Shown here: in pieces, positions 522 through 16,006 of the stretch
Layout of the letters: each line of letters opens with the position of its first letter
Numbering within the stretch: position 1 is the stretch's first letter
UHGV virus genome: UHGV-1504643
Source of the DNA: a virus
Strand: one strand, 5' to 3'
Length of the DNA: 16,006 bases
Program-made: the position numbers and the translations under genes
Notes under the pieces: generated by a model
Told to the model about the DNA's origin: nothing
Seen by the model: only the letters and a program-made list of their open reading frames with translations
The model's database searches: none

Positions 522-662
522 TGCGCGCTGGCGGTGGTGCTGATTTTATTTTTTCAGCGTCTCAGCGCGTCGTGACGGCGTTTGGATTGTGCGCCGGGGC
601 GTTGGTGTGTCTGCGGGGTGTTTTGTGCGGTGGTGAGCGTGTGAGGGCGTGATGACGGGGTG

Positions 663-686
663 TAAAAAAGCCGCCCGCAGGCGGCG
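663..686 (-). terminator. Rho-independent terminator downstream of Q (minus strand)
   Basis: GC stem GCCGCC (670-675) / GGCGGC (680-685) with 4-nt loop, followed on the minus strand by a U-run (complement of the A-run at 664-669); lies 5-28 nt past the Q stop codon. Confidence 0.55.
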
Positions 687-690
687 ATGT

Positions 691-1725
691 TCAGTCGTTG
701 TCAGTGTCCAGTGAGTAGTTTTTAAAGCGGATGACCTCCTGACCGAGCCAGCCGTTTATCTCGCGGATCCTGTCCTGTAACGGGATAAGCTCATTGCGGA
801 CAAAGACCTTTGCCACTTTCTCAATATCTCCCAGTGACCCGACGTTCTCCGGCTTGCCGCCCATCAACTGAAAGGGGATGCGGTGTGCGTCCAGCAGGTC
901 AGCGGCGCTGGCTTTTTTGATATTAAAAAAATCGTCCTTCGTTGCCACTTCACTGAGTGGGATAATTTTAATGCCGTCAGCTTTCCCCTGCGGGGCATAG
1001 AGAAACAGGTTTTTAAAGTTGTTGCGGCCTTTCGACTTCACCATGTTTTCGCGAAGCATTTCGATATCGTTGCGATCCTGCACGGCATCGGTGACGTACA
1101 TGATGTATCCGGCATGTGCGCCGTTTTCGTAATACTTGCGGCGGAACAGCGTGGCCGACTCATTCAGCCAGGCAGAGTTAAGGGCGCTGAGATATTCCGG
1201 CAGGCCGTACAGCTCCTGATTAATATCCGGCTCCAGCAGGTGAAACACGGAGCCGGGCGCGAAGGCTGTCGGCTCGTTGAAGGACGGCACCCACCAGTAA
1301 ACATCCTCCTCCACGCCACGGCGGGTATATTTTGCCGGTGAGGTTTCCAGTCTGATGACCTTACCGGTGGTGCTGTAACGCTTTTCCAGAAACGCATTAC
1401 CGAACACCAGAAAATCCAGCACAAAGCGGCTGAAATCCTGCTGGGAAAGCCACGGGTGCGGGAGAAATGTCGAGGCTAGAATATTGCGTTTGACGTAAAT
1501 CGGTGAACTGTGATGCACGGCAGCACGCAGGCTTTTTGCCAGACCGGTAAAGCTGACCGGTGGCTCATACCATCTGCCGTTACTGATGCACTCGACGTAA
1601 TCCAGAATGTCACGGCGGTCGAGTACCGGCACCGGCTCACCAAAGGTGAATGCCTCCATTTTCGGGGCGCTGGCGGTCATTGTTTTCACCGCTGGCTGCG
1701 GTGTTTTCCCTTTTTTCTTGCTCAT
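691..1725 (-). CDS. Q: Portal (capsid portal) protein, P2 gpQ homologue
   Basis: 344-aa ORF; N-terminus MSKKKGKTPQPA... and length match P2 Q as I recall; start overlaps the P stop (TGATG on minus strand), consistent with translational coupling. Confidence 0.95.
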   Translation of the reverse strand: MSKKKGKTPQPAVKTMTASAPKMEAFTFGEPVPVLDRRDILDYVECISNGRWYEPPVSFTGLAKSLRAAVHHSSPIYVKRNILASTFLPHPWLSQQDFSRFVLDFLVFGNAFLEKRYSTTGKVIRLETSPAKYTRRGVEEDVYWWVPSFNEPTAFAPGSVFHLLEPDINQELYGLPEYLSALNSAWLNESATLFRRKYYENGAHAGYIMYVTDAVQDRNDIEMLRENMVKSKGRNNFKNLFLYAPQGKADGIKIIPLSEVATKDDFFNIKKASAADLLDAHRIPFQLMGGKPENVGSLGDIEKVAKVFVRNELIPLQDRIREINGWLGQEVIRFKNYSLDTDND

Positions 1726-3497
1726 CAGTAAAACTCCAGAATGGTGGATGTCAGCGGGGTGCTGATACCGGCGGTGAGTGGCTCATTTAACAGGGCATGC
1801 ATGGTCGCCCAGGCGAGGTCGGCGTGGCTGGCTTCCTCGCTGCGGCTGGCCTCATAGGTGGCGCTGCGTCCGCTGCTGGTCATGGTCTTGCGGATAGCCA
1901 TGAACGAGCTGGTGATGTCGGTGGCGCTGACGTCATATTCCAGACAGCCACGGCGGATAACGTCTTTTGCCTTGAGCACCATTGCGGTTTTCATTTCCGG
2001 CGTGTAGCGGATATCGCGCGCGGCGGGATAGAACGAGCGCACGAGCTGGAACACGCCGACACCGAGGCCGGTGGCATCAATCCCGATGTATTCAACGTTA
2101 TATTTTTCGGTGAGTTTGCGGATGGATTCCGCCTGGGTGGCAAAGTCCATGCCTTTCCACTGGTGACGCTCAAGTATTCTGAATTTGCCACCGGCCACCA
2201 CCGGCGGTGCCAGCACCACGCATCCGGCGCTGTCGCCACGGTGTGACGGGTCGTAACCAATCCATACCGGGCGGGAGCCGAACGGATTCGCGGCAAACGG
2301 CGCATAGTCTTCCCATTCTTCCAGCGTGTCGACCATGCAGCGTTGCAGCTCCTCGAACGGGAACACCGACGCCTTGTCGTCAACAAATTCACACATGAAC
2401 AGGTTTTTAAAATCGTCGGCGCTGTTTTCACGTTTGAGCTGCTCAATGTCGAACAGCGTGCAGCCACCTTTCAGGGCGTCCTCAATGGTGACAATCTGCC
2501 GCCACTGGCCGTCCGCACAGAGAAGCCCACCGGCAAGGGCGTTATGACTGACGTCGATTTCCACGCGTTCGGCGGCGCTGGCGCGTCCCCGGTTGAACAG
2601 TTCACCTGACCAGAACGGGTAGGCGTCGTGTGCCAGCGTGGACGGGGTGGAGAAATAGGTCGAACGCAGGTGACTCTGTGAGGCCATACCTGATGCCACC
2701 TTACGCAGTACCTGAAAATTCGGGATCCAGAAAATCTCGTCGACGTACAGGTCGCCGTTATGGCTCTGTGCGGTGTTGGAGTTGGTGCCGAGAAAAATCA
2801 GTTTTGCGCCGTTATTGCCCAGGACAATCGGGTCACCGGTCAGGTCAACGTCAACCAGACGGGCAAAGGCGATGATGTATTCGCGGAACACATACGCCTG
2901 CGTTTTACTGGCCGACAGAAAAATCTGGTTATGACCGGTTTTCAGGGCGCGCAGCAGCGCCTCGCGGGAAAAATAAAACGTCGCGCCAATCTGGCGGGAT
3001 TTCAGGATATCGCGGATGCGGTGCTCAAGCCCGGCGCGATACCAGTGCAACTGATATTCGAAAGACTGCTCAAAGAAAATCTGCTCCAGCTTTTCGATGG
3101 CCTCGTCACTGAAAAAATTCTTTTTCGGTTTGCGCCGCCCGCCTTTGTTGCGGTTAGCGACGTTCGGATTAAGGTCTGCCTCGTTGCCGGTCTGGCTGTA
3201 GCGGTTGACCCGTGCCAGTCGTTCAATCTGGCGTCCGAGCAGGTCAATTTCCTTGAAGTCACCGCCGGTTTTCTGCGGTTTGATGATGAGCTGGGTCAGC
3301 CGCGCTTCCAGACTCATTTCGACACGGCTGATGGGGGCAACGCTGTCCCAGCCGTCGCGCTGTTTCCAGCTCTGCACCGTCGGGCGTTTCATCTGCAACA
3401 TGGCGGCAATCTGCGGCACGGAAAACCCCTGCCAGTACAGCAGCGCCGCCTGACGACGCGGGTCGTGTAAAAGAGTGGTGTCTGTGGTGATGGTCAT
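1725..3497 (-). CDS. P: Terminase large (ATPase) subunit, P2 gpP homologue
   Basis: Track ORF is 600 aa from 3527; I place the start at the internal ATG at 3497 (MTITTDTTLLHDPRRQ...), which has a GAGG ribosome-binding site about 5 nt upstream and gives 590 aa, the P2 P length. A P-loop-like motif (GTNSNTAQS) is present. Confidence 0.93.
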   Translation of the reverse strand: MTITTDTTLLHDPRRQAALLYWQGFSVPQIAAMLQMKRPTVQSWKQRDGWDSVAPISRVEMSLEARLTQLIIKPQKTGGDFKEIDLLGRQIERLARVNRYSQTGNEADLNPNVANRNKGGRRKPKKNFFSDEAIEKLEQIFFEQSFEYQLHWYRAGLEHRIRDILKSRQIGATFYFSREALLRALKTGHNQIFLSASKTQAYVFREYIIAFARLVDVDLTGDPIVLGNNGAKLIFLGTNSNTAQSHNGDLYVDEIFWIPNFQVLRKVASGMASQSHLRSTYFSTPSTLAHDAYPFWSGELFNRGRASAAERVEIDVSHNALAGGLLCADGQWRQIVTIEDALKGGCTLFDIEQLKRENSADDFKNLFMCEFVDDKASVFPFEELQRCMVDTLEEWEDYAPFAANPFGSRPVWIGYDPSHRGDSAGCVVLAPPVVAGGKFRILERHQWKGMDFATQAESIRKLTEKYNVEYIGIDATGLGVGVFQLVRSFYPAARDIRYTPEMKTAMVLKAKDVIRRGCLEYDVSATDITSSFMAIRKTMTSSGRSATYEASRSEEASHADLAWATMHALLNEPLTAGISTPLTSTILEFY

Positions 3498-3670
3498 GAA
3501 TACCTCGCCGTGATGAATACACGGCAAGGCTACTGAGTCGCGCCCCGCGATTCGCTAAGGTGCTGTTGTGTCAGTGATAAGCCATCCGGGACTGATGGCG
3601 GAGGATGCGCATCGTCGGGAAACTGATGCCGACATGTGACTCATCTAATCACTATTCAGGACTCCTGACA

Positions 3671-4525
3671 ATGGCAAAAAAAGTCTCAAAATTCTTTCGT
3701 ATCGGCGTTGAGGGTGACACCTGTGACGGGCGTGTCATCAGTGCGCAGGATATTCAGGAAATGGCCGAAACCTTTGACCCGCGAGTCTATGGTTGCCGCA
3801 TTAACCTGGAACATCTGCGCGGCATCCTGCCTGACGGTATTTTTAAGCGTTATGGCGATGTGGTCGAACTGAAGGCCGAAAAGATTGACGATGATTCGGC
3901 GCTGAAAGGCAAATGGGCGCTGTTTGCGAAAATCACCCCGACCGATGACCTTATCGCGATGAACAAGGCCGCGCAGAAGGTCTATACCTCAATGGAAATT
4001 CAGCCGAACTTTGCCAATACCGGCAAATGTTATCTGGTGGGGCTGGCCGTCACCGATGACCCGGCAAGCCTCGGCACGGAATACCTGGAATTCTGCCGCA
4101 CGGCAAAACACAACCCCCTGAACCGCTTCAAATTAAGCCCTGAAAATCTGATTTCAGTGGCAACGCCTGTTGAGCTGGAATTTGAAGACCTGCCTGAAAC
4201 CGTGTTCACCGCCCTGACCGAAAAGGTGAAATCCATTTTTGGCCGCAAACAGGCCAGCGATGACGCCCGTCTGAATGACGTGCATGAAGCGGTGACCGCT
4301 GTTGCTGAACATGTGCAGGAAAAACTGAGTGCCACTGAGCAGCGCCTCGCTGAGATGGAAACCGCCTTTTCCGCACTTAAGCAGGATGTGACTGACAGGG
4401 CGGATGAAACCAGCCAGGCATTCACCCGCCTGAAAAACAGCCTCGACCACACCGAAAGTCTGACCCAGCAGCGCCGCAGCAAGGCCACCGGCGGTGGCGG
4501 TGACGCCCTGATGACGAACTGCTGA
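3671..4525 (+). CDS. O: Capsid scaffolding protein, P2 gpO homologue
   Basis: Track ORF starts at 3605 with a non-ATG codon; the internal ATG at 3671 (MAKKVSKFFRIGVEGDT...) gives 284 aa, matching P2 O in length and N-terminus. Divergent from P across a 173-bp intergenic region. Confidence 0.93.
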   Translation: MAKKVSKFFRIGVEGDTCDGRVISAQDIQEMAETFDPRVYGCRINLEHLRGILPDGIFKRYGDVVELKAEKIDDDSALKGKWALFAKITPTDDLIAMNKAAQKVYTSMEIQPNFANTGKCYLVGLAVTDDPASLGTEYLEFCRTAKHNPLNRFKLSPENLISVATPVELEFEDLPETVFTALTEKVKSIFGRKQASDDARLNDVHEAVTAVAEHVQEKLSATEQRLAEMETAFSALKQDVTDRADETSQAFTRLKNSLDHTESLTQQRRSKATGGGGDALMTNC

Positions 4526-4583
4526 CCGGCGTCAGTCAGTCCGGGAAAACCTTCACGATTAACCCTTAATTTCAGGAAAAACT

Positions 4584-5657
4584 ATGCGCCAGGAAACCCG
4601 CTTTAAATTTAATGCCTATCTGTCCCGTGTTGCCGAACTGAACGGCATCGACGCCGGTGATGTGTCGAAAAAATTCACCGTTGAACCGTCGGTCACCCAG
4701 ACCCTGATGAACACCATGCAGGAGTCCTCTGATTTTCTGACCCGCATCAACATTGTGCCGGTCAGCGAAATGAAAGGGGAAAAAATTGGTATTGGTGTCA
4801 CCGGCTCCATCGCCAGCACCACCGACACCGCCGGTGGCACCGAGCGTCAGCCGAAGGACTTCTCGAAGCTGGCGTCAAACAAGTACGAATGCGACCAGAT
4901 TAACTTCGATTTTTATATCCGCTACAAAACGCTTGACCTGTGGGCGCGTTATCAGGATTTCCAGCTTCGTATCCGTAACGCCATTATCAAACGCCAGTCC
5001 CTTGATTTCATCATGGCCGGTTTTAACGGTGTGAAGCGTGCCGAAACCTCTGACCGCAACAGTAATCCGATGCTGCAGGATGTGGCGGTCGGCTGGCTGC
5101 AGAAATACCGCAATGAAGCCCCGGCGCGCGTGATGAGCAAGGTCACTGACGAGGAAGGCCGCACCACCTCTGAGGTTATCCGCGTGGGTAAGGGCGGTGA
5201 TTATGCCAGCCTTGATGCACTGGTGATGGATGCGACCAACAACCTGATTGAGCCGTGGTATCAGGAAGACCCTGACCTTGTGGTGATTGTGGGGCGTCAG
5301 CTACTGGCGGACAAGTATTTCCCCATCGTTAACAAAGAGCAGGACAACAGCGAAATGCTGGCCGCTGACGTCATCATCAGCCAGAAACGCATCGGTAACC
5401 TGCCGGCGGTACGCGTCCCGTACTTCCCGGCGGATGCGATGCTCATCACGAAGCTGGAAAACCTGTCCATCTACTACATGGATGACAGCCATCGCCGCGT
5501 GATTGAGGAAAACCCGAAACTCGACCGCGTGGAGAACTACGAGTCAATGAACATTGATTACGTGGTGGAAGACTACGCCGCCGGTTGCCTGGTGGAAAAA
5601 ATTAAGGTCGGTGATTTCTCCACACCGGCTAAGGCGACCGCAGAGCCGGGAGCGTAA
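4584..5657 (+). CDS. N: Major capsid protein, P2 gpN homologue
   Basis: 357-aa ORF; AGGAAA ribosome-binding site upstream of ATG; N-terminus MRQETRFKFNAYLSRVAEL... and length match P2 N as I recall. Confidence 0.95.
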   Translation: MRQETRFKFNAYLSRVAELNGIDAGDVSKKFTVEPSVTQTLMNTMQESSDFLTRINIVPVSEMKGEKIGIGVTGSIASTTDTAGGTERQPKDFSKLASNKYECDQINFDFYIRYKTLDLWARYQDFQLRIRNAIIKRQSLDFIMAGFNGVKRAETSDRNSNPMLQDVAVGWLQKYRNEAPARVMSKVTDEEGRTTSEVIRVGKGGDYASLDALVMDATNNLIEPWYQEDPDLVVIVGRQLLADKYFPIVNKEQDNSEMLAADVIISQKRIGNLPAVRVPYFPADAMLITKLENLSIYYMDDSHRRVIEENPKLDRVENYESMNIDYVVEDYAAGCLVEKIKVGDFSTPAKATAEPGA

Positions 5658-5660
5658 CCG

Positions 5661-6404
5661 ATGACGAGTCCCGCACAGCGCCACATGATGCGGGTCTCGG
5701 CAGCGATGACCGCGCAGCGGGAAGCCGCCCCGCTGCGACATGCAACTGTCTATGAGCAGATGCTGGTTAAGCTCGCCGCAGACCAGCGCACACTGAAAGC
5801 GATTTATTCAAAAGAGCTTAAGGCCGCGAAAAAGCGCGAACTGCTGCCGTTCTGGTTGCCGTGGGTGAACGGCGTGCTGGAGCAGGGCAAAGGTGCACAG
5901 GATGACATTCTGATGACGGTCATGCTGTGGCGTCTGGATAGCGGCGATATTGCCGGTGCGCTGGAGATTGCCCGTTATGCCCTGAAGTACGGTCTGACCA
6001 TGCCGGGTAAACACCGCCGCACCCCGCCGTACATGTTCACCGAGGAGGTGGCGCTCGCGGCCATGCGTGCTCACGCTGCCGGTGAGTCTGTGGATACCCG
6101 CCTGCTGACGGAGACCCTCGAACTGACCGCCACGGCTGACATGCCTGATGAAGTGCGCGCAAAGCTGCACAAAATCACCGGTCTGTTTCTGCGTGACGCT
6201 GGTGATGCCGCAGGTGCGCTGGCGCACCTGCAACGTGCGACACAGCTCGACTGTCAGGCAGGCGTCAAAAAAGAGATTGAACGACTGGAGCGGGAGCTGA
6301 AACCGAAGCCGGAGCCGCAGCCAAAAGCGGTCACCCGCGCCCCGCGTAAGACCCGGAGCGTGACCCCGGCAAAACGTGGACGCCCGAAAAAGAAAGCCAG
6401 TTAA
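5661..6404 (+). CDS. M: Terminase small (endonuclease) subunit, P2 gpM homologue
   Basis: 247-aa ORF starting 4 nt after the N stop; basic C-terminal tail (RAPRKTRSVTPAKRGRPKKKAS); position and length match P2 M. Confidence 0.92.
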   Translation: MTSPAQRHMMRVSAAMTAQREAAPLRHATVYEQMLVKLAADQRTLKAIYSKELKAAKKRELLPFWLPWVNGVLEQGKGAQDDILMTVMLWRLDSGDIAGALEIARYALKYGLTMPGKHRRTPPYMFTEEVALAAMRAHAAGESVDTRLLTETLELTATADMPDEVRAKLHKITGLFLRDAGDAAGALAHLQRATQLDCQAGVKKEIERLERELKPKPEPQPKAVTRAPRKTRSVTPAKRGRPKKKAS

Positions 6405-6503
6405 CAACCGAATGCGCCCCGCGCCAGGGCGGCACGCCGGTCAGTGACGGTGAATCACCTGACACTGCACCGGCGTCCACCGCCCGACTTTTCAGAGGTA
6501 GTC

Positions 6504-7013
6504 ATGATGACGCTGATTATTCCGCGAAAGGAGGCTCCCGTGTCCGGTGAGGGTACGGTGGTCATCCCGCAACCGGCAGGCGACGAGCCGGTGATTAAAA
6601 ACACGTTCTTTTTTCCCGATATCGACCCGAAGCGTGTCCGGGAACGTATGCGCCTTGAGCAGACCGTCGCCCCCGCCCGTCTGCGTGAGGCCATCAAGTC
6701 AGGCATGGCGGAGACGAATGCGGAGCTGTACGAGTACCGCGAACAGAAAATTGCCGCCGGTTTTACGCGTCTGGCGGACGTCCCGGCGGACGACATCGAC
6801 GGTGAAAGCATCAAAGTTTTTTACTACGAGCGCGCCGTGTGTGCGATGGCGACCGCATCGCTTTATGAGCGTTATCGCGGCGTGGATGCCAGTGCCAAGG
6901 GCGACAAGAAGGCCGACAGCATTGACAGCACCATTGATGAACTGTGGCGGGATATGCGCTGGGCGGTGGCACGTATCCAGGACAAGCCGCGCTGCATCGT
7001 GAGTCAAATCTGA
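6504..7013 (+). CDS. L: Head completion/stabilisation protein, P2 gpL homologue
   Basis: Track ORF starts at 6444; the internal ATG at 6504 has a GAGG site 6 nt upstream and gives 169 aa, matching P2 L length. Confidence 0.9.
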   Translation: MMTLIIPRKEAPVSGEGTVVIPQPAGDEPVIKNTFFFPDIDPKRVRERMRLEQTVAPARLREAIKSGMAETNAELYEYREQKIAAGFTRLADVPADDIDGESIKVFYYERAVCAMATASLYERYRGVDASAKGDKKADSIDSTIDELWRDMRWAVARIQDKPRCIVSQI

Positions 7014-7216
7014 TGAAGACCTTTGCGCTACAGGGCGACACGCTCGACGCCATTTGTGTCCGGTATTACGGGCGCACTGAGGGCGTGGTTGAGACCGTGC
7101 TCGCCGCAAATCCGGGACTGGCTGAACTGGGTGCGATGCTGCCGCACGGCACCGCCGTCGAACTGCCCGACGTTCAGACCGCGCCCGTGGCTGAAACTGT
7201 CAATCTGTGGGAGTAA
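7013..7216 (+). CDS. X: Tail protein X (LysM-like small tail protein), P2 gpX homologue
   Basis: 67-aa ORF MKTFALQGDTLDAICVRYYGRTEGV...; ATG overlaps the L stop (ATGA). The track's longer ORF from 6944 is an upstream in-frame extension inside L. Confidence 0.85.
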   Translation: MKTFALQGDTLDAICVRYYGRTEGVVETVLAANPGLAELGAMLPHGTAVELPDVQTAPVAETVNLWE

Positions 7217-7219
7217 CGC

Positions 7220-7501
7220 ATGACAGCAGAAGAAAAAAGCGTTCTGTCGCTTTTCATGATTGGAGTGCTGATTGTTGTCGGCAAGGTGCTTGCCGGTGGT
7301 GAACCCATCACCCCGCGTCTGTTTATCGGGCGCATGTTGCTCGGTGGTTTTGTCTCGATGGTTGCCGGTGTTGTTCTGGTGCAGTTTCCTGACCTGTCAC
7401 TGCCTGCGGTGTGCGGCATCGGCTCCATGCTGGGTATCGCCGGTTATCAGGTGATTGAGATTGCCATTCAGCGCCGCTTTAAGGGCAGGGGGAAACAGTA
7501 A
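7220..7501 (+). CDS. Y: Holin, P2 gpY homologue
   Basis: 93-aa ORF with hydrophobic transmembrane segments and a charged C-terminus (RRFKGRGKQ); lies immediately upstream of the endolysin gene. Confidence 0.9.
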   Translation: MTAEEKSVLSLFMIGVLIVVGKVLAGGEPITPRLFIGRMLLGGFVSMVAGVVLVQFPDLSLPAVCGIGSMLGIAGYQVIEIAIQRRFKGRGKQ

Positions 7502-7998
7502 TGCCGGTAATGAACACGCATCAGAATATCGCCGCCTTTCTCGACATGCTGGCCGTGTCCGAAGGGACGGCGAATCATCCACTGACGAAAAACCGGGGCT
7601 ATGACGTGATAGTCACCGGACTGGACGGAAAGCCGGAAATTTTCACCGACTACAGTGACCACCCGTTCGCGCATGGCCGACCGGCGAAGGTGTTTAACCG
7701 TCGTGGTGAAAAATCCACGGCCTCCGGTCGCTATCAGCAGCTTTACCTGTTCTGGCCGCATTACCGCAAACAGCTTGCCCTGCCGGATTTCAGTCCGTTG
7801 TCACAGGACAGACTTGCCATTCAGTTGATCCGCGAACGCGGTGCACTGGATGACATCCGGGCGGGACGCATTGAGCGCGCCATTTCACGCTGTCGCAATA
7901 TCTGGGCGTCCCTGCCGGGTGCCGGTTACGGTCAGCGTGAGCATTCACTGGAAAAACTGGTCACCGTCTGGCGTACCGCTGGCGGCGTACCGGCTTAA
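7501..7998 (+). CDS. K: Endolysin (lysozyme-like murein hydrolase), P2 gpK homologue
   Basis: 165-aa ORF; start overlaps the Y stop (TAATG); position and length match P2 K. Confidence 0.92.
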   Translation: MPVMNTHQNIAAFLDMLAVSEGTANHPLTKNRGYDVIVTGLDGKPEIFTDYSDHPFAHGRPAKVFNRRGEKSTASGRYQQLYLFWPHYRKQLALPDFSPLSQDRLAIQLIRERGALDDIRAGRIERAISRCRNIWASLPGAGYGQREHSLEKLVTVWRTAGGVPA

Positions 7999-8012
7999 AC
8001 GGAGTAAACACC

Positions 8013-8438
8013 ATGAAGAAATTATCCCTTTCACTGATGCTGAATGTGTCGCTGGCGCTGATGCTGGCACTGTCCCTGATTTACCCGCAGAGCGTGGCCG
8101 TCAATTTTGTCGCCGCCTGGGCGATTCTGGCGACGGTTATCTGTGTGGTTGCCGGTGGTGTCGGCGTGTATGCCACGGAGTATGTACTGGAACGCTACGG
8201 ACGGGAGCTGCCGCCGGAATCGCTGGCCGTGAAGATTGTCACGTCGCTGTTTTTACAGCCGGTGCCGTGGCGCAGGCGGGCGGCGGCTCTGGTGGTGATG
8301 GTGGCGACGTTTATCTCGCTGGTCGCTGCCGGGTGGATTTTTACCGCGCTGATTTATCTCGTGGCATCGGTGTTCTTCCGGCTGATACGTACGGCCTGCC
8401 GTCAGCGTTTTGAGGGGCGGGAACCATGTCAAAGCTGA
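8013..8438 (+). CDS. lysA: Lysis-timing membrane protein LysA
   Basis: 141-aa ORF with multiple hydrophobic helices; synteny with P2 lysA. Confidence 0.85.
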   Translation: MKKLSLSLMLNVSLALMLALSLIYPQSVAVNFVAAWAILATVICVVAGGVGVYATEYVLERYGRELPPESLAVKIVTSLFLQPVPWRRRAAALVVMVATFISLVAAGWIFTALIYLVASVFFRLIRTACRQRFEGREPCQS

Positions 8439-8851
8439 TGACTGTGCTGGTTGTGTTGTTATCGCTGGCGGTGGCCGGTCTGTTTCTGGTGAAACACAAA
8501 AATGCCAGCCTGCGCGCCTCGCTGGACAGGGCGAATAACGTCGCCAGTGAACAGCAGACGACCATCACCATGCTGAAAAATCAGCTTCATGTTGCACTCA
8601 CCAGGGCAGACAAAAACGAGCTGGCGCAGGTGGCACTGCGTCAGGAACTGGAGAACGCCGCGAAGCGTGAAGCACAGCGCGAGAAAACCATCACGAGGTT
8701 ACTGAATGAAAACGAAGATTTTCGCCGCTGGTACGGTGCTGACCTGCCTGATGCTGTGCGCCGGTTGCACCAGCGCCCGGCCTGCACCGACGCCAGTGAT
8801 TGTCGCCAACGCCTGCCCGAAAGTGAGCCTTTGCCCGATGCCGGGCAGTGA
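8426..8851 (+). CDS. lysB: LysB, inner-membrane spanin (Rz-like)
   Basis: 141-aa ORF with an N-terminal transmembrane helix (LMTVLVVLLSLAVAGLFLV) and a charged, probably coiled-coil periplasmic region; overlaps the lysA 3' end by 13 nt. Confidence 0.85.
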   Translation: MSKLMTVLVVLLSLAVAGLFLVKHKNASLRASLDRANNVASEQQTTITMLKNQLHVALTRADKNELAQVALRQELENAAKREAQREKTITRLLNENEDFRRWYGADLPDAVRRLHQRPACTDASDCRQRLPESEPLPDAGQ

Positions 8852-8996
8852 CCCGCAGACGAACGGCGATTTAAGTGCTGATATCCGGCAGCTTGAGAAC
8901 GCGCTGGCACGCTGTGCCAGCCAGGTAAAAATGATTAAACACTGTCAGGACGAAAACGATGCTCAAACCCGACAGCCTGCGCAGGGCGCTGACTGA
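8706..8996 (+). CDS. lysC: LysC, outer-membrane lipoprotein spanin (Rz1-like), embedded out of frame in lysB
   Basis: 96-aa ORF with signal peptide and Cys-containing lipobox-like segment (LMLCAGCTS); GAGG site 8 nt upstream of ATG; begins inside lysB in another frame and runs past it into the start of R. Confidence 0.8.
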   Translation: MKTKIFAAGTVLTCLMLCAGCTSARPAPTPVIVANACPKVSLCPMPGSDPQTNGDLSADIRQLENALARCASQVKMIKHCQDENDAQTRQPAQGAD

Positions 8997-9426
8997 TGCC
9001 GTCACGGTGCTGAAAACCAGCCCCGAGATGCTGCGGATATTCGTGGATAACGGGAGTATTGCCTCCACACTGGCGACGTCGTTGTCATTCGAAAAGCGTT
9101 ACACGCTCAATGTGATTGTGACCGACTTTACCGGTGATTTTGACCTGCTCATTGTGCCGGTGCTGGCGTGGCTGCGGGAAAATCAGCCCGACATCATGAC
9201 CACCGACGCAGGCCAGAAAAAGGGCTTCACGTTTTATGCAGACATCAACAATGACAGCAGCTTTGATATCAGCATCAGTCTGATGCTGACCGAGCGCACG
9301 CTGGTCAGTGAGGTGGACGGCGCACTGCATGTGAAGAATATCCCGGAACCTCCGCCGCCGGAGCCGGTCACCCGCCCGGTGGAGCTTTATATCAATGGTG
9401 AACTGGTGAGCAAGTGGGATGAATGA
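8959..9426 (+). CDS. R: Tail completion protein, P2 gpR homologue
   Basis: 155-aa ORF; position and length match P2 R. Confidence 0.9.
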   Translation: MLKPDSLRRALTDAVTVLKTSPEMLRIFVDNGSIASTLATSLSFEKRYTLNVIVTDFTGDFDLLIVPVLAWLRENQPDIMTTDAGQKKGFTFYADINNDSSFDISISLMLTERTLVSEVDGALHVKNIPEPPPPEPVTRPVELYINGELVSKWDE

Positions 9427-9871
9427 GTTTAAGCGTTTTGAAGACCGGCTGACCGGACTGATTGAGTCGCTGTCACCGTCAGGGCGTCGGCGACTGAGTG
9501 CCGAACTGGCAAAACGTCTGCGACAGAGTCAGCAGCGTCGGGTGATGGCACAGAAAGCCCCGGACGGCACACCCTACGCGCCACGCCAGCAGCAGAGCGC
9601 CAGAAAAAAGACTGGTCGTGTTAAGCGAAAAATGTTTGCGAAACTTATTACCAGTCGTTTTTTGCATATTCGCGCCAGCCCGGAGCAGGCATCAATGGAA
9701 TTTTACGGCGGGAAGTCGCCGAAAATCGCCAGTGTGCATCAGTTCGGTCTGTCGGAAGAAAACCGGAAAGACGGTAAGAAAATTGATTATCCGGCGCGTC
9801 CTCTGCTCGGCTTTACCGGTGAGGATGTACAGATGATTGAAGAGATTATCCTGGCTCACCTCGACCGTTAG
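9419..9871 (+). CDS. S: Tail completion protein, P2 gpS homologue
   Basis: 150-aa ORF; 8-nt overlap with R; position and length match P2 S. Confidence 0.9.
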   Translation: MNEFKRFEDRLTGLIESLSPSGRRRLSAELAKRLRQSQQRRVMAQKAPDGTPYAPRQQQSARKKTGRVKRKMFAKLITSRFLHIRASPEQASMEFYGGKSPKIASVHQFGLSEENRKDGKKIDYPARPLLGFTGEDVQMIEEIILAHLDR

Positions 9872-9903
9872 TTGTGCCATTCCCGACACCTCATCGTCAC
9901 ATT

Positions 9904-9925
9904 GCCGCCGGTATGACCCGGCGGC
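9904..9925 (+). promoter_or_regulatory. Inverted repeat (8-bp stem, 6-nt loop) in the S-V intergenic region; possible regulatory element near the expected late promoter for the V operon
   Basis: GCCGCCGG (9904-9911) / CCGGCGGC (9918-9925); no U-tract follows, so not a classical intrinsic terminator. P2 has a late promoter upstream of V (established knowledge); its identity here is inference. Confidence 0.3.
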
Positions 9926-9937
9926 ATCCTTCCCGTT

Positions 9938-10573
9938 ATGAACACACTCGCAAATATTCAGGAACTCGCGCGCGCACTGCGCAACATGATCCGCACCGGC
10001 ATTATCGTCGAAACCGACCTTAACGCCGGTCGCTGCCGTGTGCAGACCGGCGGCATGTGCACCGACTGGCTTCAGTGGCTGACCCATCGCGCCGGACGTT
10101 CGCGCACATGGTGGGCACCTTCCGTGGGGGAACAGGTGCTGATTCTGGCCGTGGGCGGTGAACTCGACACGGCGTTCGTTCTGCCGGGGATTTATTCCGG
10201 CGATAACCGCGCGCCGTCTGCGTCGGCGGATGCCCTGCATATCCGTTTCCCTGACGGGGCGGTGATTGAGTATGAACCCGAAACCAGTGCACTCACGGTA
10301 AGCGGAATTAAAACGGCCAGCGTGACGGCTTCTGATTCTGTTACTGCCACGGTACCGGTGGTCACGGTGAAAGCGTCAACCCGTGTCACCCTGGACACAC
10401 CGGAAGTGGTCTGCACTAACAAACTGACTACCGGCACGCTGGAAGTGCAGAAGGGCGGGACGATGCGCGGCAACATTGAACACACCGGCGGTGAACTCTC
10501 ATCAAACGGTAAGGTACTGCATACCCACAAACACCCCGGCGACAGCGGCGGCACAACCGGGAGTCCTTTATGA
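9938..10573 (+). CDS. V: Baseplate central spike protein, P2 gpV homologue
   Basis: 211-aa ORF; position and length match P2 V. Confidence 0.92.
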   Translation: MNTLANIQELARALRNMIRTGIIVETDLNAGRCRVQTGGMCTDWLQWLTHRAGRSRTWWAPSVGEQVLILAVGGELDTAFVLPGIYSGDNRAPSASADALHIRFPDGAVIEYEPETSALTVSGIKTASVTASDSVTATVPVVTVKASTRVTLDTPEVVCTNKLTTGTLEVQKGGTMRGNIEHTGGELSSNGKVLHTHKHPGDSGGTTGSPL

Positions 10574-10917
10574 CAGCGCGTTATCTCGGAATGAATCGCA
10601 GTGATGGCCTGACGGTCACTGACCTTGAGCATATCAGCCAGAGTATCGGCGATATCCTGCGCACACCGGTCGGCTCACGGGTGATGCGTCGTGATTACGG
10701 CTCGTTGCTGGCGTCAATGATTGACCAGCCGCAGACTCCGGCGCTTGAGTTGCAGATTAAGGTCGCCTGTTACATGGCGGTACTGAAATGGGAACCCCGC
10801 GTCACCCTGTCATCCGTCACCACGGCGCGCAGTTTTGACGGGCGAATGACGGTCACGTTAACCGGTCAGCACAACGACACCGGCCAGCCACTTTCGTTAA
10901 CCATCCCTGTGAGTTGA
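10570..10917 (+). CDS. W: Baseplate wedge protein (gp25-like), P2 gpW homologue
   Basis: 115-aa ORF; ATGA overlap with the V stop. Confidence 0.92.
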   Translation: MTARYLGMNRSDGLTVTDLEHISQSIGDILRTPVGSRVMRRDYGSLLASMIDQPQTPALELQIKVACYMAVLKWEPRVTLSSVTTARSFDGRMTVTLTGQHNDTGQPLSLTIPVS

Positions 10918-10921
10918 AACC

Positions 10922-11830
10922 ATGCCGATTATCGACCTGAACCAGCTACCCGCACCGGATGTGGTCGAGGAGCTGGACTTTGAAACCATTCTTGCCGAAC
11001 GCAAGGCGACACTGATTTCCCTTTACCCGGAAGACCAGCAGGAGGCGGTCGCCCGTACCCTGACGCTGGAATCCGAGCCTCTCGTCAAACTGCTGGAGGA
11101 AAATGCTTATCGTGAGCTTATCTGGCGTCAGCGTGTGAATGAGGCCGCACGGGCGGTGATGCTGGCCTGTGCCGCCGGTAATGACCTTGATGTGATTGGT
11201 GCCAATTACAACACCACGCGCCTGATTATCACCCCGGCAGATGATTCGACCATCCCGCCGACACCGGCAGTGATGGAGTCTGACACCGATTATCGTCTGC
11301 GTATTCAGCAGGCGTTTGAGGGCTTAAGCGTTGCCGGGTCGGTGGGAGCCTATCAGTATCATGGTCGTAGTGCCGACGGGCGTGTCGCGGATATCTCTGT
11401 TACCAGTCCGTCTCCGGCCTGTGTCACTGTCTCCGTGCTGTCACGTGAAAATAACGGCGTCGCATCCGAAGACCTGCTGGCTGTGGTGCGTAACGCCCTT
11501 AATGGCGAGGACGTCAGGCCGGTGGCCGACCGCGTGACCGTGCAGTCTGCCGCCATCGTTGAATACCAGATAAACGCCACGCTTTACCTTTACCCTGGTC
11601 CCGAAAGCGAACCCATACGCGCTGCCGCCGTGAAAAAACTGGAAGCGTACATCACGGCACAGCACCGGCTGGGGCGTGACATCCGTCTGTCTGCCATTTA
11701 TGCCGCTTTGCATGTGGAAGGCGTGCAGCGTGTTGAACTGGCTTCACCACTGGCCGACATCGTGCTCAACAGTACGCAGGCGTCTTTCTGTACCGAATAC
11801 CACGTCGTGACCGGAGGCTCGGATGAGTGA
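10922..11830 (+). CDS. J: Baseplate protein J, P2 gpJ homologue
   Basis: 302-aa ORF; position and length match P2 J. Confidence 0.92.
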   Translation: MPIIDLNQLPAPDVVEELDFETILAERKATLISLYPEDQQEAVARTLTLESEPLVKLLEENAYRELIWRQRVNEAARAVMLACAAGNDLDVIGANYNTTRLIITPADDSTIPPTPAVMESDTDYRLRIQQAFEGLSVAGSVGAYQYHGRSADGRVADISVTSPSPACVTVSVLSRENNGVASEDLLAVVRNALNGEDVRPVADRVTVQSAAIVEYQINATLYLYPGPESEPIRAAAVKKLEAYITAQHRLGRDIRLSAIYAALHVEGVQRVELASPLADIVLNSTQASFCTEYHVVTGGSDE

Positions 11831-12353
11831 TTCGCGACTGCTGCCGACCGGCTCATCACCGCTTGAAGTTGCCGCCGCAAAAGCCTGTGCGGAAATTGAA
11901 AAAACGCCGGTCAGTATTCGTGAGCTGTGGAACCCGGATACCTGTCCGGCAAATCTGCTGCCGTGGCTGGCGTGGGCGTTTTCGGTCGACAGGTGGGATG
12001 AAAAGTGGCCGGAAGCGACCAAACGCGCCGTTATTCGCGATGCCTATTTCATCCACTGTCATAAAGGCACTATAGGTGCAATCCGGCGTGTGGTGGAGCC
12101 GCTGGGCTATCTCATCAACGTGACAGAGTGGTGGGAAACCAGTGACCCGCCAGGCACCTTCCGGCTTGATATTGGCGTACTGGAAAGCGGCATCACAGAG
12201 GCAATGTATCAGGAAATGGAACGGCTTATTGCTGATGCCAAACCTGCAAGCCGTCATCTTATTGGCCTGAACATTACCCGGGATATTCCCGGCTACCTGT
12301 TCGCCGGTGGTGTGGCTTACGACGGCGATGTAATTACGGTTTACCCCGGATAA
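11823..12353 (+). CDS. I: Baseplate protein I, P2 gpI homologue
   Basis: 176-aa ORF; GGAGG site upstream; 8-nt overlap with J. Confidence 0.9.
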   Translation: MSDSRLLPTGSSPLEVAAAKACAEIEKTPVSIRELWNPDTCPANLLPWLAWAFSVDRWDEKWPEATKRAVIRDAYFIHCHKGTIGAIRRVVEPLGYLINVTEWWETSDPPGTFRLDIGVLESGITEAMYQEMERLIADAKPASRHLIGLNITRDIPGYLFAGGVAYDGDVITVYPG

Positions 12354-12363
12354 GTGAGGAATA

Positions 12364-14613
12364 ATGAGCACAAAATTCAAAACCGTTATCACCACTGCCG
12401 GTGCAGCAAAGCTGGCAGCGGCAACCGCACCGGGAGGGCGGAAGGTCAACATTACCACGATGGCCGTCGGGGATGGCGGTGGTAAATTGCCTGTCCCGGA
12501 TGCCGGACAGACCGGGCTTATCCATGAAGTCTGGCGACATGCGCTGAACAAAATCAGCCAGGACAAACGAAACAGTAATTATATTATCGCAGAGCTGGTT
12601 ATTCCGCCGGAGGTGGGCGGTTTCTGGATGCGTGAACTTGGCCTGTACGATGATGCGGGAACGCTAATTGCCGTGGCGAACATGGCCGAAAGTTATAAGC
12701 CAGCCCTTGCCGAAGGCTCAGGGCGTTCGCAGACCTGCCGCATGGTCATCATCGTCAGCAGTGTGGCCTCAGTGGAGCTGACCATTGACACCACAACGGT
12801 GATGGCAACGCAGGATTACGTTGATGACAAAATTGCAGAACATGAACAGTCACGACGTCACCCTGACGCCTCGCTGACCGCAAAAGGTTTTACTCAGTTA
12901 AGCAGTGCGACCAACAGCACGTCTGAAACACTGGCTGCAACTCCGAAAGCGGTTAAGGCCGCATATGACCTTGCTAACGGGAAATATACCGCACAGGACG
13001 CTACCACCGCGCGAAAAGGCCTTGTTCAGCTCAGTAGTGCGACTAACAGCACGTCTGAAACGCTCGCCGCAACGCCGAAAGCGGTAAAGGCAGCATATGA
13101 CCTTGCTAACGGGAAATACACTGCACAGGATGCCACAACAGCGCGAAAAGGCCTTGTTCAGCTCAGTAGCGCCACCAACAGCGATTCTGAAACGCTTGCG
13201 GCAACGCCAAAGGCGGTTAAGACAGCATATGACCTTGCTAACGGGAAATACACTGCACAGGATGCCACCACGGCGCGAAAAGGTCTTGTCCAGCTCAGTA
13301 GCGCCACCAACAGTGATTCTGAAACGCAGGCTGCAACGCCAAAGGCGGTGAAGTCTGCCTATGACAATGCTGAAAAACGTCTTCAGAAAGATCAAAACGG
13401 TGCGGATATCCCTGATAAAGAACGCTTCCTGAGTAACATTAATGTTTACAGCAAAGGTGAAGTGGATAAGAAAAAGGGAATGCGAAAGTATTCGTTTGCA
13501 GCCCCTGCAAATGTCGTTGCCGGGAAGTGGTACCCCGTTATCTTTCGCCGTGCTGCCAGCCTTTCAGGAGAAATGGCATCCCGCGTTGTTATTTCCACTG
13601 GTTGTTATAACGGCGATTATGTAATGAATAACTGCGAGTTTAATGGCATGGTTATGCCCGGAGGCTGGACTGATCGTGGTTCATATGCGGCAGGTTATTT
13701 CTGGACGTATCAGACTAATGAGCGTTCAATCCATTCCATTGTTACAAGCCTGAAAGATGATGATGTATGTAGTGTTTTTTATGTTGAAGCCAGAGCTTTC
13801 CCTGTACAAATTCTTGCAGAGGAAGGGCTAACGGTTATTGTTCCGACAGAGGATTATGTCGTCGGTCAAACGACATATAAGTGGGGAGCAACTAATCCCG
13901 CTACAGAAAGCACGAACGCACAGGCTATTCTGGATTTTAAAAATGGACGTGGTTATTACTGTTCACATCCATTTATTTCCAGCCTTTCAGGAAATGCTGC
14001 AACAGCAACGAAGTTAGCGAACGCAAGAAATATTAATGGTGTCAGATTTGATGGCTCTGCCGATATAAATATTAATACACTGGTATCCAGAAACCGTGTT
14101 AATGCATTAGGTGGGAGCGTAAAGGGGACACCAGGTATTCAGATGTATGAGGCATACAACAATGGCTACCCAACAGCCTATGGTAATGTGCTTCATCTCA
14201 CTGGCGTAACCGCAGTAGGAGAGGGTGAGTTACTTATTGGCTGGAGTGGAACCAGCGGTGCTCATGCTCCGGCATATATTCGTTCCCGACGAGATACCAC
14301 AGATGCAGACTGGTCTGGATGGGCGCAACTATATACAACTGCTCATAAACCCTCAGCGGGAGATGTTGGTGCATACACCAAAACTGAGTCAGATTCACGT
14401 TATGTGAGAGACATGCGGCTGGGCGGTGCATCTACATATAAACCAGCAAATAATGGTACTACATGGACGCATCAGGCTCCGTCAGGTTGCGTATATACCG
14501 GCATTATTGTTCAGGATACCGGCTCAAACTCTGCCGATAACATTGGTGGCGTATATTACAGACCGGTGCAGAAATACATTAACGGGACATGGTATAACGT
14601 GGCGCAGGTATAA
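12364..14613 (+). CDS. H: Tail fibre protein, P2 gpH homologue: conserved N-terminal baseplate-attachment domain, tandem fibre repeats, and a divergent lower-GC C-terminal receptor-binding region
   Basis: 749-aa ORF; N-terminus MSTKFKTVITTAGAAKLAAATAPG... is P2 H-like as I recall; contains about 3.7 tandem 44-aa repeats and the widespread fibre motif NAATATKLANARNINGVRFDGSADININ in the C-terminal half. Confidence 0.93.
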   Translation: MSTKFKTVITTAGAAKLAAATAPGGRKVNITTMAVGDGGGKLPVPDAGQTGLIHEVWRHALNKISQDKRNSNYIIAELVIPPEVGGFWMRELGLYDDAGTLIAVANMAESYKPALAEGSGRSQTCRMVIIVSSVASVELTIDTTTVMATQDYVDDKIAEHEQSRRHPDASLTAKGFTQLSSATNSTSETLAATPKAVKAAYDLANGKYTAQDATTARKGLVQLSSATNSTSETLAATPKAVKAAYDLANGKYTAQDATTARKGLVQLSSATNSDSETLAATPKAVKTAYDLANGKYTAQDATTARKGLVQLSSATNSDSETQAATPKAVKSAYDNAEKRLQKDQNGADIPDKERFLSNINVYSKGEVDKKKGMRKYSFAAPANVVAGKWYPVIFRRAASLSGEMASRVVISTGCYNGDYVMNNCEFNGMVMPGGWTDRGSYAAGYFWTYQTNERSIHSIVTSLKDDDVCSVFYVEARAFPVQILAEEGLTVIVPTEDYVVGQTTYKWGATNPATESTNAQAILDFKNGRGYYCSHPFISSLSGNAATATKLANARNINGVRFDGSADININTLVSRNRVNALGGSVKGTPGIQMYEAYNNGYPTAYGNVLHLTGVTAVGEGELLIGWSGTSGAHAPAYIRSRRDTTDADWSGWAQLYTTAHKPSAGDVGAYTKTESDSRYVRDMRLGGASTYKPANNGTTWTHQAPSGCVYTGIIVQDTGSNSADNIGGVYYRPVQKYINGTWYNVAQV
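12883..13365 (+). repeat. Tandem direct repeat, 132-bp unit x about 3.7 copies, in frame within H (phage tail-fibre repeat)
   Basis: Near-identical units starting at 12883, 13015, 13147 and 13279, each encoding KG(F/L)(T/V)QLSSATNS(T/D)SET(L/Q)AATPKAVK(A/T/S)AYDLANGKYTAQDATTAR; the fourth copy diverges after AYD. Confidence 0.9.
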
Positions 14614-14616
14614 TTT

Positions 14617-15144
14617 ATGCAGCATTTAAAAAATATTACGGCGGGTAATCCAAAAACGGTTGAACAATATCAATTGACAAAGGACTTTGATGTTGTCTGG
14701 TTTTTTTCAGAAGATGGTAAGAACTGGTACGAAGAACAAAAGTATTTTGCTGATGACACGATAAAAATAGCGTACGACAAAGATAATATCATCCACTATG
14801 TGGAAAAGGATGTGACAGCTATCAGACCGGATGGATTAAGTGTTGTTGAAGTGGCGGATATTACTGCTAACCGACGGGCGGACATTTCAGGGAACTGGAT
14901 GTTTAAGGACGGCAAAGTGATTAAACGCATTTATACGGCAGAGGAATTACAGCAGCAGGCAGAAATTCGGAAAGCCAGACTTCTTGCAGATGCTGAATCC
15001 GTGATTTTGCCGCTGGAGCGCGCGGTCAGACTGAACATGGCAACAGATGAGGAGCGTAGCCGACTGGAATCATGGGAACGCTACAGCGTTCTGGTCAGTC
15101 GTGTGGATCCTGCAAATCCTGAATGGCCGGAAATGCCGCAATAA
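14617..15144 (+). CDS. G: Tail fibre assembly protein (fibre chaperone), P2 gpG homologue
   Basis: 175-aa ORF starting 3 nt after the H stop; position and length match P2 G; lower G+C, like the H C-terminal half. Confidence 0.9.
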
Positions 15145-15167
15145 GTTGTATTAGCTTACATATCTAT

Positions 15168-15207
15168 GGCACAGAGTAAAGCCTAATCTGACAGTCCGCT
15201 CTGTGCC
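15168..15207 (+). repeat. Inverted repeat / stem-loop (9-bp stem, 22-nt loop) 24 nt downstream of G
   Basis: GGCACAGAG (15168-15176) and CTCTGTGCC (15199-15207) are exact reverse complements; no U-tract follows. Confidence 0.5.
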
Positions 15208-15501
15208 AGGAGCAGACATTGCCAACGTTATGACCCTCGATTACATCAAAGAGCCCTATAGCCGAAACCTGCACCATAGCCATCTCTGTAGAATTCGTCC
15301 TAGGGGCTTTTAACAGACCTAGTTGTATGGATCGGAAGGAAATATTAAAGCTCAAGGCGTCAGTCCAGTGCTGTCCTGTTTGCTTACCACACGAAAGAGT
15401 GCTGCTTGTACCTGCTAACTAATGGATGCGGAGTGAGGGGGGCGGGTAGAACCAAAAGCACTTACTACGTGTGGCGCTCTCCTGGAAGAGGAGACGTCGA
15501 A

Positions 15502-15588
15502 GTGATAACGCTAACAACAGTCTTACTGGTGATGCAAATAATGCTAGCTGGTCTGGTTGCCATCAAGCAACTGACCGGACGCCCGTAA
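15502..15588 (+). CDS. Hypothetical 28-codon hydrophobic peptide (candidate small membrane protein or type I toxin-like peptide)
   Basis: GTG start at 15502 with AGAGGAG (15487-15493) 8 nt upstream; encodes (M)ITLTTVLLVMQIMLAGLVAIKQLTGRP, one predicted transmembrane helix plus a short basic tail; stop TAA at 15586-15588, about 22 nt before an intrinsic terminator. No homology evidence available. Confidence 0.3.
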   Translation: MITLTTVLLVMQIMLAGLVAIKQLTGRP

Positions 15589-15610
15589 GGGATGGAGGAA
15601 CTTGATTAAA

Positions 15611-15639
15611 GGCAGGGGGGTACCTCCCCTGCCTTTTTT
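15611..15639 (+). terminator. Rho-independent terminator (plus strand)
   Basis: GGCAGGGG (15611-15618) / CCCCTGCC (15626-15633) stem with a 7-nt loop, followed by TTTTTT (15634-15639). Confidence 0.65.
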
Positions 15640-15702
15640 CGTTTCTGCGCAAGTTAGCTCTGTTATTATAATCTTTACTCACACTGTAAGGACATAGTTC
15701 AA

Positions 15703-16006
15703 ATGACTGAATGGCTTAATGCACATTTTGGTGCAGACGCAGCTACCTATCTTAGCTTATTAGTCGGCGTACTGGCACTGTTTGGTATTGGGGGCGGTGT
15801 TACATATAGAATCAGACAGCAAAACAACATAAAACAGAAGGCAAAGAAAACCGAGGGTGATGTGAACCAGGCCGGGCGGGATATTAATCAGACCACCAAC
15901 GTTTACCACACATCCAATGAATCTACTGAGGACCCTGTAAAAAAAAAGCAAGATGAACAAGATCTGAAAATAATCGACCAGATCCTTGAATTGCTGCCTT
16001 ATGAAG
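15703..16006 (+). CDS. Hypothetical membrane-anchored protein, N-terminal 101 codons only (continues beyond window end); cargo gene at the P2 G/FI (Z/fun) position
   Basis: ATG at 15703 with AAGGA about 9 nt upstream; open to the window end, which is why it is absent from the ORF track. Translation: MTEWLNAHFGADAATYLSLLVGVLALFGIGGGVTYRIRQQNNIKQKAKKTEGDVNQAGRDINQTTNVYHTSNESTEDPVKKKQDEQDLKIIDQILELLPYE... One N-terminal transmembrane helix followed by a polar, charged region. Not recognisable as P2 FI or any P2 late protein. Confidence 0.6.
   Translation, partial: MTEWLNAHFGADAATYLSLLVGVLALFGIGGGVTYRIRQQNNIKQKAKKTEGDVNQAGRDINQTTNVYHTSNESTEDPVKKKQDEQDLKIIDQILELLPYE

Follow-up and report, generated by a model that had tools for sequence, protein, structure and literature searches.

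Tail fibre gene H and chaperone gene G of a probable P2-like Escherichia coli prophage resemble a mosaic of separately exchanged segments

Since 1992, phage tail fibres have been known at textbook level as patchworks of parts exchanged among phages, and binding of the fibre tip by the chaperone, together with trimerisation from the C-terminus, has been shown for the S and U proteins of Mu. Haggard-Ljungquist et al. (1992, J Bacteriol 174:1462), whose title names a shared fibre gene pool, reportedly describe exchange of fibre and chaperone genes among phages of the P2, Mu, P1 and lambda types. The fibres of P2 attach to LPS, and their assembly depends on gpG (PMC9594776). The Tfa protein of Mu combines a variable N-terminal part with a conserved C-terminal part (PMC9608196), and in the P2-like phage P88 a swap of 31 residues near the fibre C-terminus altered host range (PMC5285337).

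We analysed a window of 16,006 nucleotides from the virus genome UHGV-1504643, in which positions 12364-15144 very probably hold, as judged from its sequence, the tail fibre gene H and the chaperone gene G of an E. coli prophage of the P2-like (Peduovirus) type. Gene H (12364..14613) encodes a tail fibre protein of 749 aa and gene G (14617..15144) a tail fibre assembly protein of 175 aa; both are intact open reading frames (ORFs), they and all their parts described below lie on the plus strand, and only 3 nt separate the stop codon of H from the start codon of G. As in P2 (gpH/gpG, NC_001895), H is located between the baseplate gene I and G in the late operon order V-W-J-I-H-G. The two loci share the domains PF12571, PF03406 and PF02413, a G protein of equal length and the same C-terminal ending, ...YINGTWYNVAQV. 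The ORFs of the upstream 12 kb correspond in size and order to the portal, terminase, capsid, lysis and baseplate genes of P2, J and I have Pfam matches, and the operon is collinear with the annotated P2 record, with a nucleotide identity of 96.5% from gene V through position 13089. Beyond this point the nucleotide comparison with P2 gave no match over 13090-14558, a match of 76% over 14559-15220, and 92-98% identity from ~15050 onward. The closest relatives of the intervening segments are lambdoid, P1-like, Mu-like and siphophage fibres. This course of identity and these relatives in other phage types support the original prediction of a horizontally exchanged receptor-binding module. Neither near-identity to P2 nor a uniform composition was found when both were looked for, and the idea of exchange survives.

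The portion of H held in common with P2 begins with a tail-collar N-terminal domain (aa 1-151, 12364..12816; PF12571, 197.7 bits, cut-off 23). Residues 1-165 are 97% identical to P2 and 86-100% identical across all nine peduovirus fibres compared. The first ~170 residues had been expected to be P2-like, which is correct as far as it goes; the likeness extends to ~residue 250, with 95.6% aa identity to P2 H over aa 1-251. Four tandem Phage_fiber_2 units of 44 aa follow (aa 170-340, 12871..13383; PF03406, 266.5 bits), whereas P2 has two fibre repeats. These four units and the TRF result (period 132, 3.5 copies, 88% matches, 12910-13365) confirm the predicted repeat block, which corresponds to direct-repeat family D1. 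It is within this block that the nucleotide match to P2 stops. A conserved linker (YDNAEKRLQKDQNGADIPDKERFLSNINV; aa 333-361, 13360..13446) is common to Mu S, and the linker region aligns to Mu S/S' residues 99-173. Breakpoints relative to other peduoviruses sit in the linker as well, where the nucleotide match to 12474III stops at 13412 and the protein match to Ec1604D011 at aa 359. The repeat block has the appearance of both a shaft and a crossover zone.

Over H aa 340-676, similarity to P2 H is undetectable. Segment M3 (aa 361-544, 13444..13995), a mid-fibre, predicted beta-rich domain that seems to be exchanged alone, shares 99.4-99.5% aa identity with phage P2_2H4, 57-59% with the siphophages JenK1 and 9g, and 30-40% with T5-like, rV5-like and Aeromonas T4-like fibres. 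The 75% match to the side fibre of a lambdoid prophage takes in M3 along with the linker and the final repeat, and a segment-wise comparison of peduovirus fibres found no counterpart of M3 in P2 H. The AF2 model of M3 is beta-rich (pLDDT 62.7), and the search for a confident structural relative of this segment found none. Beyond a role in the shaft, M3 may conceivably be a second, lateral glycan-binding site, a suggestion that we consider doubtful. If it is true, specificity would be set at two places in the fibre that can be swapped independently, M3 and the tip, and the combination of the two would decide host range. Segment M4 (aa 545-676, 13996..14391), which likewise appears to be exchanged alone, holds the NAATATKL...FDGS motif (NAATATKLANARNINGVRFDGSADININ, at H aa 544-571, 13993-14076). 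This fibre motif had been thought to be kept from P2, a claim that fails, because a pattern search of P2 H finds no match. M4 is 76% identical to the S protein of a P1-like plasmid, with which it is the sole shared segment, and 73-75% identical to SSU5 and P1.

The distal tip of H (aa 677-749, 14392..14613) is homologous to the tip of Mu S/S' and, on this basis, is probably both the receptor-binding end and the docking site for G. Mu S/S' and U (PDB 5YVQ, 8JU3) align with H over aa 288-362 and aa 638-749 and with G over its full length, and H aa 638-749 also aligns to a solved 'short tail fiber'. Compared with the tip of P2 H, the final 73 residues of H show ~42-45% identity (45% for P2 H aa 605-669, E 1e-11). 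The tip is present at 93-96% identity in ~20 isolated peduoviruses, with the match beginning exactly at aa 677, and the stretch 14392-15144 alone is present at ~94% identity in many E. coli genomes. As to the host range, which had been predicted to differ from that of P2, E. coli C is the recorded host of some phages that carry this tip and, in the collection examined, is listed for P2-family phages too; sequence cannot reveal host range.

G had been described as different in sequence from its P2 counterpart. We find instead a full-length homologue of P2 G, aligning end to end at 76% aa and 76% nt identity. It carries the Caudo_TAP domain PF02413 (aa 40-175; 116.8 bits, cut-off 22.1) and matches phrog_136 'tail fiber assembly protein' (E 4.5e-79) and Mu U (PDB 5yvq_B; E 5.9e-84), the latter from residues 1-175 to 1-175 at 74% identity. 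Its N-domain (aa 1-95, 14617-14901), which would pair with the tip, is 68% identical to P2 G, and its conserved C-domain (aa 96-175, 14902-15141) is 85% identical, which fits the variable-N, conserved-C design of Mu Tfa. Across P2, Wphi, 12474III and Mu, the corresponding values are 67-72% and 81-86%. G N-domain identity follows tip identity with a Pearson r of 0.89 across 11 pairs that are phylogenetically non-independent and form two clusters, and the correlation of the G N-domain is 0.09 with M4 and 0.51 with M3. Common to this locus and the phages fiAA91-ss, NC_070905 and Ec1604D011 are the tip (94-96%) and G (~95-97% in the N-domain), but neither M3 nor M4. The linkage of tip and G is not absolute, since in the Mu-like Yersinia phage vB_YpM_41 a tip of 89% identity adjoins a chaperone with only 72% (N) and 39% (C) identity.

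Taken together, these sequence relationships indicate that at least three segments, namely M3, M4 and the tip with G, reassort independently. The original prediction of one cassette gives way to at least three segments with separate relatives and breakpoints at ~aa 360, 545 and 677. The closest isolated phage, Peduovirus P2_2H4 (NC_049385), illustrates this arrangement. Its H of 748 aa is 88% identical overall to the 749 aa found here, with G at 97%, the near-identical M3 and a tip at 98.6%, but M4 is only 39% identical in protein and has no nucleotide match over ~14007-14313, suggesting that another mid-distal segment was swapped in. A match on either side of this interval and not within it is difficult to reconcile with arrival of everything after the repeats, the C-terminal half of H and G, as a single foreign block of low G+C. 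The same applies to the clean breakpoints and to nearest relatives that differ from part to part. Such a one-step arrival, which we regard as improbable, would account for the joint presence of the whole block at 97-99.7% identity in E. coli, where 67 of the 5,426 complete genomes carry the variable part of H-G (at least 80% of 13381-15144 present; best identity 99.7%). Partial matches occur in 1,711 E. coli genomes. The protein homologue search, used for alignment, returned only proteins of less than 400 aa, nearly all of them E. coli fragments.

A single foreign block would also agree with base composition. G+C falls from 0.57 to 0.45, and the uniformly lower value of 0.451 over 13381-15144 compares with 0.535-0.604 in all 1764-nt intervals of the backbone (464-13380), in agreement with the lower G+C predicted for the C-terminal half of H and for G. 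However, the distal half of H and G of P2 itself show the same drop, with a G+C of 0.38-0.48. A low G+C is characteristic of this common pool of fibre genes, to which the P2 copy belongs as well. Because P2 H and G are also low in G+C, composition is no marker of difference from P2, and it neither dates nor delimits a transfer. The low G+C of this locus should not be taken as a sign that a P2-like phage differs from P2.

The same H-G arrangement is found at 97-99.7% nucleotide identity in prophage fibres of E. coli 120899, A30, TUM18781 and others, and the cargo 3' of G varies between strains. The fibre module is thus an ordinary and already known one, as dozens of E. coli genome sequences contain this version. 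Some related copies decay: H is annotated as broken, in pseudogene pieces, in 120899 and similar strains, unlike here, and E. coli cM2a retains only the part from 14167 onward. It is nevertheless very unlikely that H and G of this window are remnants, that is, fibre genes of a defective prophage or of a tailocin-like, tail-only particle that no longer determine which hosts a phage can infect, because both genes are uninterrupted and, in the 16 kb seen, the upstream ORFs are P2-like in size and order and V-W-J-I match P2 at 96.5% identity. Scarcely tenable is divergence in place, in which fast diversifying selection on receptor-binding residues without recombination would explain distal H and G: receptor-binding regions do evolve quickly and the full-length similarity of G to P2 G alone could be divergence, but identity falls abruptly from 96.5% to undetectable within one gene and then returns to 92-98%, and M3 and M4 are 57-76% identical to siphophage, lambdoid and P1-like plasmid fibres yet absent from P2 H.

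The variable part ends in a conserved right flank (15050..15220, plus strand) that consists of the last ~90 nt of G and ~75 nt downstream and includes an inverted repeat (15167-15176 / 15199-15208). In 60-nt intervals from 15052 on, this flank is 92-98% identical to P2, Wphi and 12474III, compared with 58-78% in the body of G, and it is nearly invariant among six P2-like phages; 12 nt directly after the G stop codon are missing from the window. We considered the stem-loop at 15167-15208 as an RNA element and rejected it, because its folding energy is at chance level (z = -1.58; 11 of 200 shuffles gave an equally good fold). Rfam gave no match in the whole window at gathering thresholds, and only chance-level matches over 15100-16006 at E <= 1. 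Two small ORFs after G (15164-15355 on the minus strand and 15406-15588 on the plus strand) have no Pfam match.

An invertible host-range switch of the type of the Mu G or P1 C segment, in which a second fibre-tip and Tfa set lies in opposite orientation between inverted crossover sites beside a Gin/Cin/Hin invertase, was likewise rejected, as G is followed by neither an opposing copy of a fibre tip or Tfa gene nor an invertase ORF. A template repeat for the tip was rejected too: a search of 12000-16006 for inverted and direct repeats yielded nothing meaningful for the distal region, its sole inverted repeat being a 20-nt, 80% pair at chance level. The locus therefore differs from those of Mu and P1 in having, within the window, no invertible segment, invertase, opposing S'/U' copy or long inverted repeats, and also in its N-terminal attachment domain, which is the P2 collar and not that of Mu or P1. 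The loci of the P1-like plasmid and of vB_YpM_41, by contrast, do have such an opposing Tfa gene and invertase.

We propose that the collar of H would anchor a trimeric fibre to the baseplate and remain with the phage backbone. The four repeats and the linker would form the proximal shaft and, because they are repeated and conserved, could double as homologous crossover points. The distal fibre would be composed of M3, M4 and tip modules drawn from a pool common to P2-, Mu-, P1- and lambda-like phages and some virulent phages. By analogy with P2, the tip would contact the receptor, probably the LPS core. By analogy with Mu S/U, to whose chaperone G is so similar, the variable N-domain of G would bind the tip, and its conserved C-terminal helices would drive trimerisation from the C-terminus of the fibre. 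The receptor, the formation of trimers and the binding of G are thus all predicted from homology. If the N-domain binds the tip, tip and G would be inherited as one unit, with M3 and M4 swapped separately from them.

Public genomes of phages and of E. coli already contain the allele, which carries little weight as a discovery. Its segment boundaries, at ~aa 360, 545 and 677 and at the conserved 3' end of G, would be of modest practical use as natural joining sites in engineered P2-based particles, in which the tip and G would best be moved jointly. In nature, the near-invariant flanks, formed by the collar and repeats on the left and by the 3' end of G with ~75 nt on the right, may allow the variable part to pass from one P2-like genome to another by homologous recombination.

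The window spans the late-gene region of an E. coli prophage of P2-like type (Peduovirus). ORFs 5′ of V match the P2 portal, terminase, capsid, lysis and tail-completion genes in size and order, and the order V-W-J-I-H-G from V onward was confirmed by a collinear P2 match, with P2 I and J identified by Pfam as the two genes directly before H. The tail fibre gene H (12364-14613, 749 aa) and the chaperone gene G (14617-15144, 175 aa) are both uninterrupted ORFs. Pfam assigns aa 1-151 of H to a tail-collar domain (PF12571) and aa 170-340 to four Phage_fiber_2 repeats (PF03406), compared with two such units in P2 H, and detects Caudo_TAP (PF02413) in G; Tandem Repeats Finder detected a 132-nt period in 3.5 copies at 12910-13365. 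The N-terminus of H is P2-like, as originally predicted, but the proposed extent of about 170 residues was too short: aa 1-251 share 95.6% identity with P2 H, and the nucleotide match runs from V to 13089 at 96.5%.

The predicted fall in G+C downstream of the repeats is real. The interval 13381-15144 has a G+C of 0.451, beyond any fluctuation of the backbone (464-13380), where all 1,116 windows of equal length lie at 0.535-0.604. However, P2's own genes behave similarly, with 0.46-0.48 in the C-terminal half of H and 0.38 in the N-terminal half of G, and the sliding G+C profile of P2 drops to 0.38-0.46 across the same genes. Composition therefore marks the gene pool of these segments rather than a difference between the prophage and P2, and the G+C argument does not discriminate between the two.

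Sequence divergence from P2 is narrower than the proposed replacement of the C-terminal half of H and the whole of G. No similarity to P2 H was detectable for H aa 340-676, but the last 73 residues align with the P2 tip at about 42-45% identity, and all 175 residues of G align with P2 G at 76%. G also matches Mu U over its full length (PDB 5yvq_B, E 5.9e-84), and is an ordinary P2/Mu-type chaperone. The fibre motif NAATATKLANARNINGVRFDGSADININ (H aa 544-571), thought to have been kept from P2, was not found in P2 H; it lies within a segment that P1-like fibres also carry.

A segment-wise protein comparison of eleven fibre/chaperone pairs, extended by further relatives, gave each part of H a different distribution. 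The collar (aa 1-165) is 86-100% identical in all nine peduovirus fibres compared, and absent or weak in the P1-like and Mu-like fibres of the panel. The segment at aa 361-544 (M3) is 99.5% identical in the P2-like phage P2_2H4, 75% in the side fibre of a lambdoid prophage at the bio locus, 57-59% in siphophages JenK1 and 9g, and 30-40% in T5-like, rV5-like and Aeromonas T4-like fibres; it is absent or weak in P2, Wphi, fiAA91-ss and most other peduoviruses of the panel. A search for its fold gave no convincing structural match (model pLDDT 62.7). The following segment (M4, aa 545-676) is closest to the S protein of a P1-like plasmid (76%) and to SSU5 and P1 (73-75%), with only 39% in P2_2H4. 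The tip (aa 677-749) is 94-99% identical in P2_2H4, fiAA91-ss, NC_070905 and E. coli 1604D011, and at least 93% in about 20 isolated peduoviruses, the match invariably starting at aa 677, with 41-45% in P2, Wphi, P37, AC1 and 12474III.

Nucleotide breakpoints also vary by relative: the P2 match ends within the repeats, that to 12474III at 13412 in the conserved linker, and P2_2H4 matches at 96.9% up to 14006, not at all over 14007-14313, and at 95.5% again from 14314. In many prophages of complete E. coli genomes, only 14392-15144 (tip and G) is common (~94%), accompanied by other mid-fibre sequences. The original observation thus largely holds, and an exchanged receptor-binding module was right in kind, but the distal region is a mosaic of three independently shuffled units, not one cassette.

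Identity in the N-domain of G (aa 1-95) tracks that of the tip (Pearson r = 0.89, Spearman 0.93); the corresponding values are r = 0.09 for M4 and r = 0.51, not significant, for M3. Because the 11 pairs are non-independent, the correlation supports co-travel of tip and chaperone but is no formal test of it. Against the P2, Wphi, 12474III and Mu chaperones, G is 81-86% identical in the C-domain and 67-72% in the N-domain. This pattern fits the published design of Mu Tfa, a chaperone that remains on the virion, with a variable N-domain for binding the distal fibre and a conserved helical C-domain that drives trimerisation (PMC9608196). In P2, the fibres bind LPS and depend on gpG for assembly (PMC9594776). 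The host range of the P2-like phage P88 was altered by a swap of 31 residues near the fibre C-terminus (PMC5285337), and specificity therefore sits in the region equivalent to the tip of H. Since PhiR44_1 and PhiR44_2 have the same tip and E. coli C as host on record, overlap with the range of P2's laboratory hosts is possible.

Most of G is 58-78% identical to P2, Wphi and 12474III, and windows starting at or beyond ~15050, covering the last ~90 nt of G and ~75 nt beyond, reach 92-98%; this stretch is nearly invariant in six P2-like phages. An island at 14572-14630, which runs from the last part of H (YINGTWYNVAQV) into the beginning of G, is 82-92% identical to the same three phages in surroundings otherwise at 50-78%, and could serve for crossovers within the region. 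Homologous exchange would find obvious substrates in the collar and repeats to the left and in the conserved islands at the H/G junction and the G 3′ end.

The ~75 nt 3′ of the G stop (15145-15220) are 91-98% identical across P2-like phages, compared with 76% for G. They contain a 10-bp inverted repeat (15167-15176/15199-15208), although the predicted fold is no better than that of shuffles (z = -1.58), and 12 nt present in five relatives just 3′ of the stop codon are missing from the window. The adjoining 15220-15700, the position of fun(Z) in P2, has no Rfam or Pfam match and comprises ~390 nt without a convincing gene, ending in a strong terminator-like hairpin (15608-15636 plus T-run). Just 5′ of the hairpin, a 28-codon hydrophobic ORF (GTG at 15502 to stop at 15588, VITLTTVLLVMQIMLAGLVAIKQLTGRP), with GGAGA 7 nt upstream, could encode a small membrane peptide or be due to chance. 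A further ORF, hydrophobic at its N-terminus, begins at 15704 and continues past the window end (15704-16006). Its counterpart in E. coli cM2a, where identity is 99.8% (locus L004, 6559-9296), encodes a hypothetical protein of 227 aa; next come another of 261 aa, an opposite-strand DUF6650 protein with an N-terminal match to PADLOC nuclease effectors (PDC-M68A, E 3.6e-24), and then the tail sheath gene. The genes between 15704 and the sheath gene may be anti-phage cargo occupying the G-FI variable spot. At the other end, 1-463 is AT-rich (G+C 0.36), had no nucleotide match in the phage collection, and encodes on the minus strand the N-terminus of an ABC-type ATPase (Walker motif, then KIGYLAQE), cut off at the left edge of the window. 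The stretch adjoins the portal gene, and therefore probably belongs to the other variable locus of P2 as cargo.

At least 80% of 13381-15144 is present in 67 of 5,426 complete E. coli genomes (best 99.7%), and some part of it in 1,711. Among isolated phages, P2_2H4 comes closest (H 88%, G 97%). Relatives of the prophage show decay. E. coli cM2a has kept it only from window position 14167 on, abutting yegR, and 120899-type strains carry the same H allele, 97.8% identical over V to G, annotated as a pseudogene in pieces. Haggard-Ljungquist et al. 1992 reportedly dealt with the exchange of fibre and chaperone genes among P2, Mu, P1 and lambda-type phages; the phenomenon in general is well established, and the H/G fibre mosaicism seen here is an ordinary, already-described feature.
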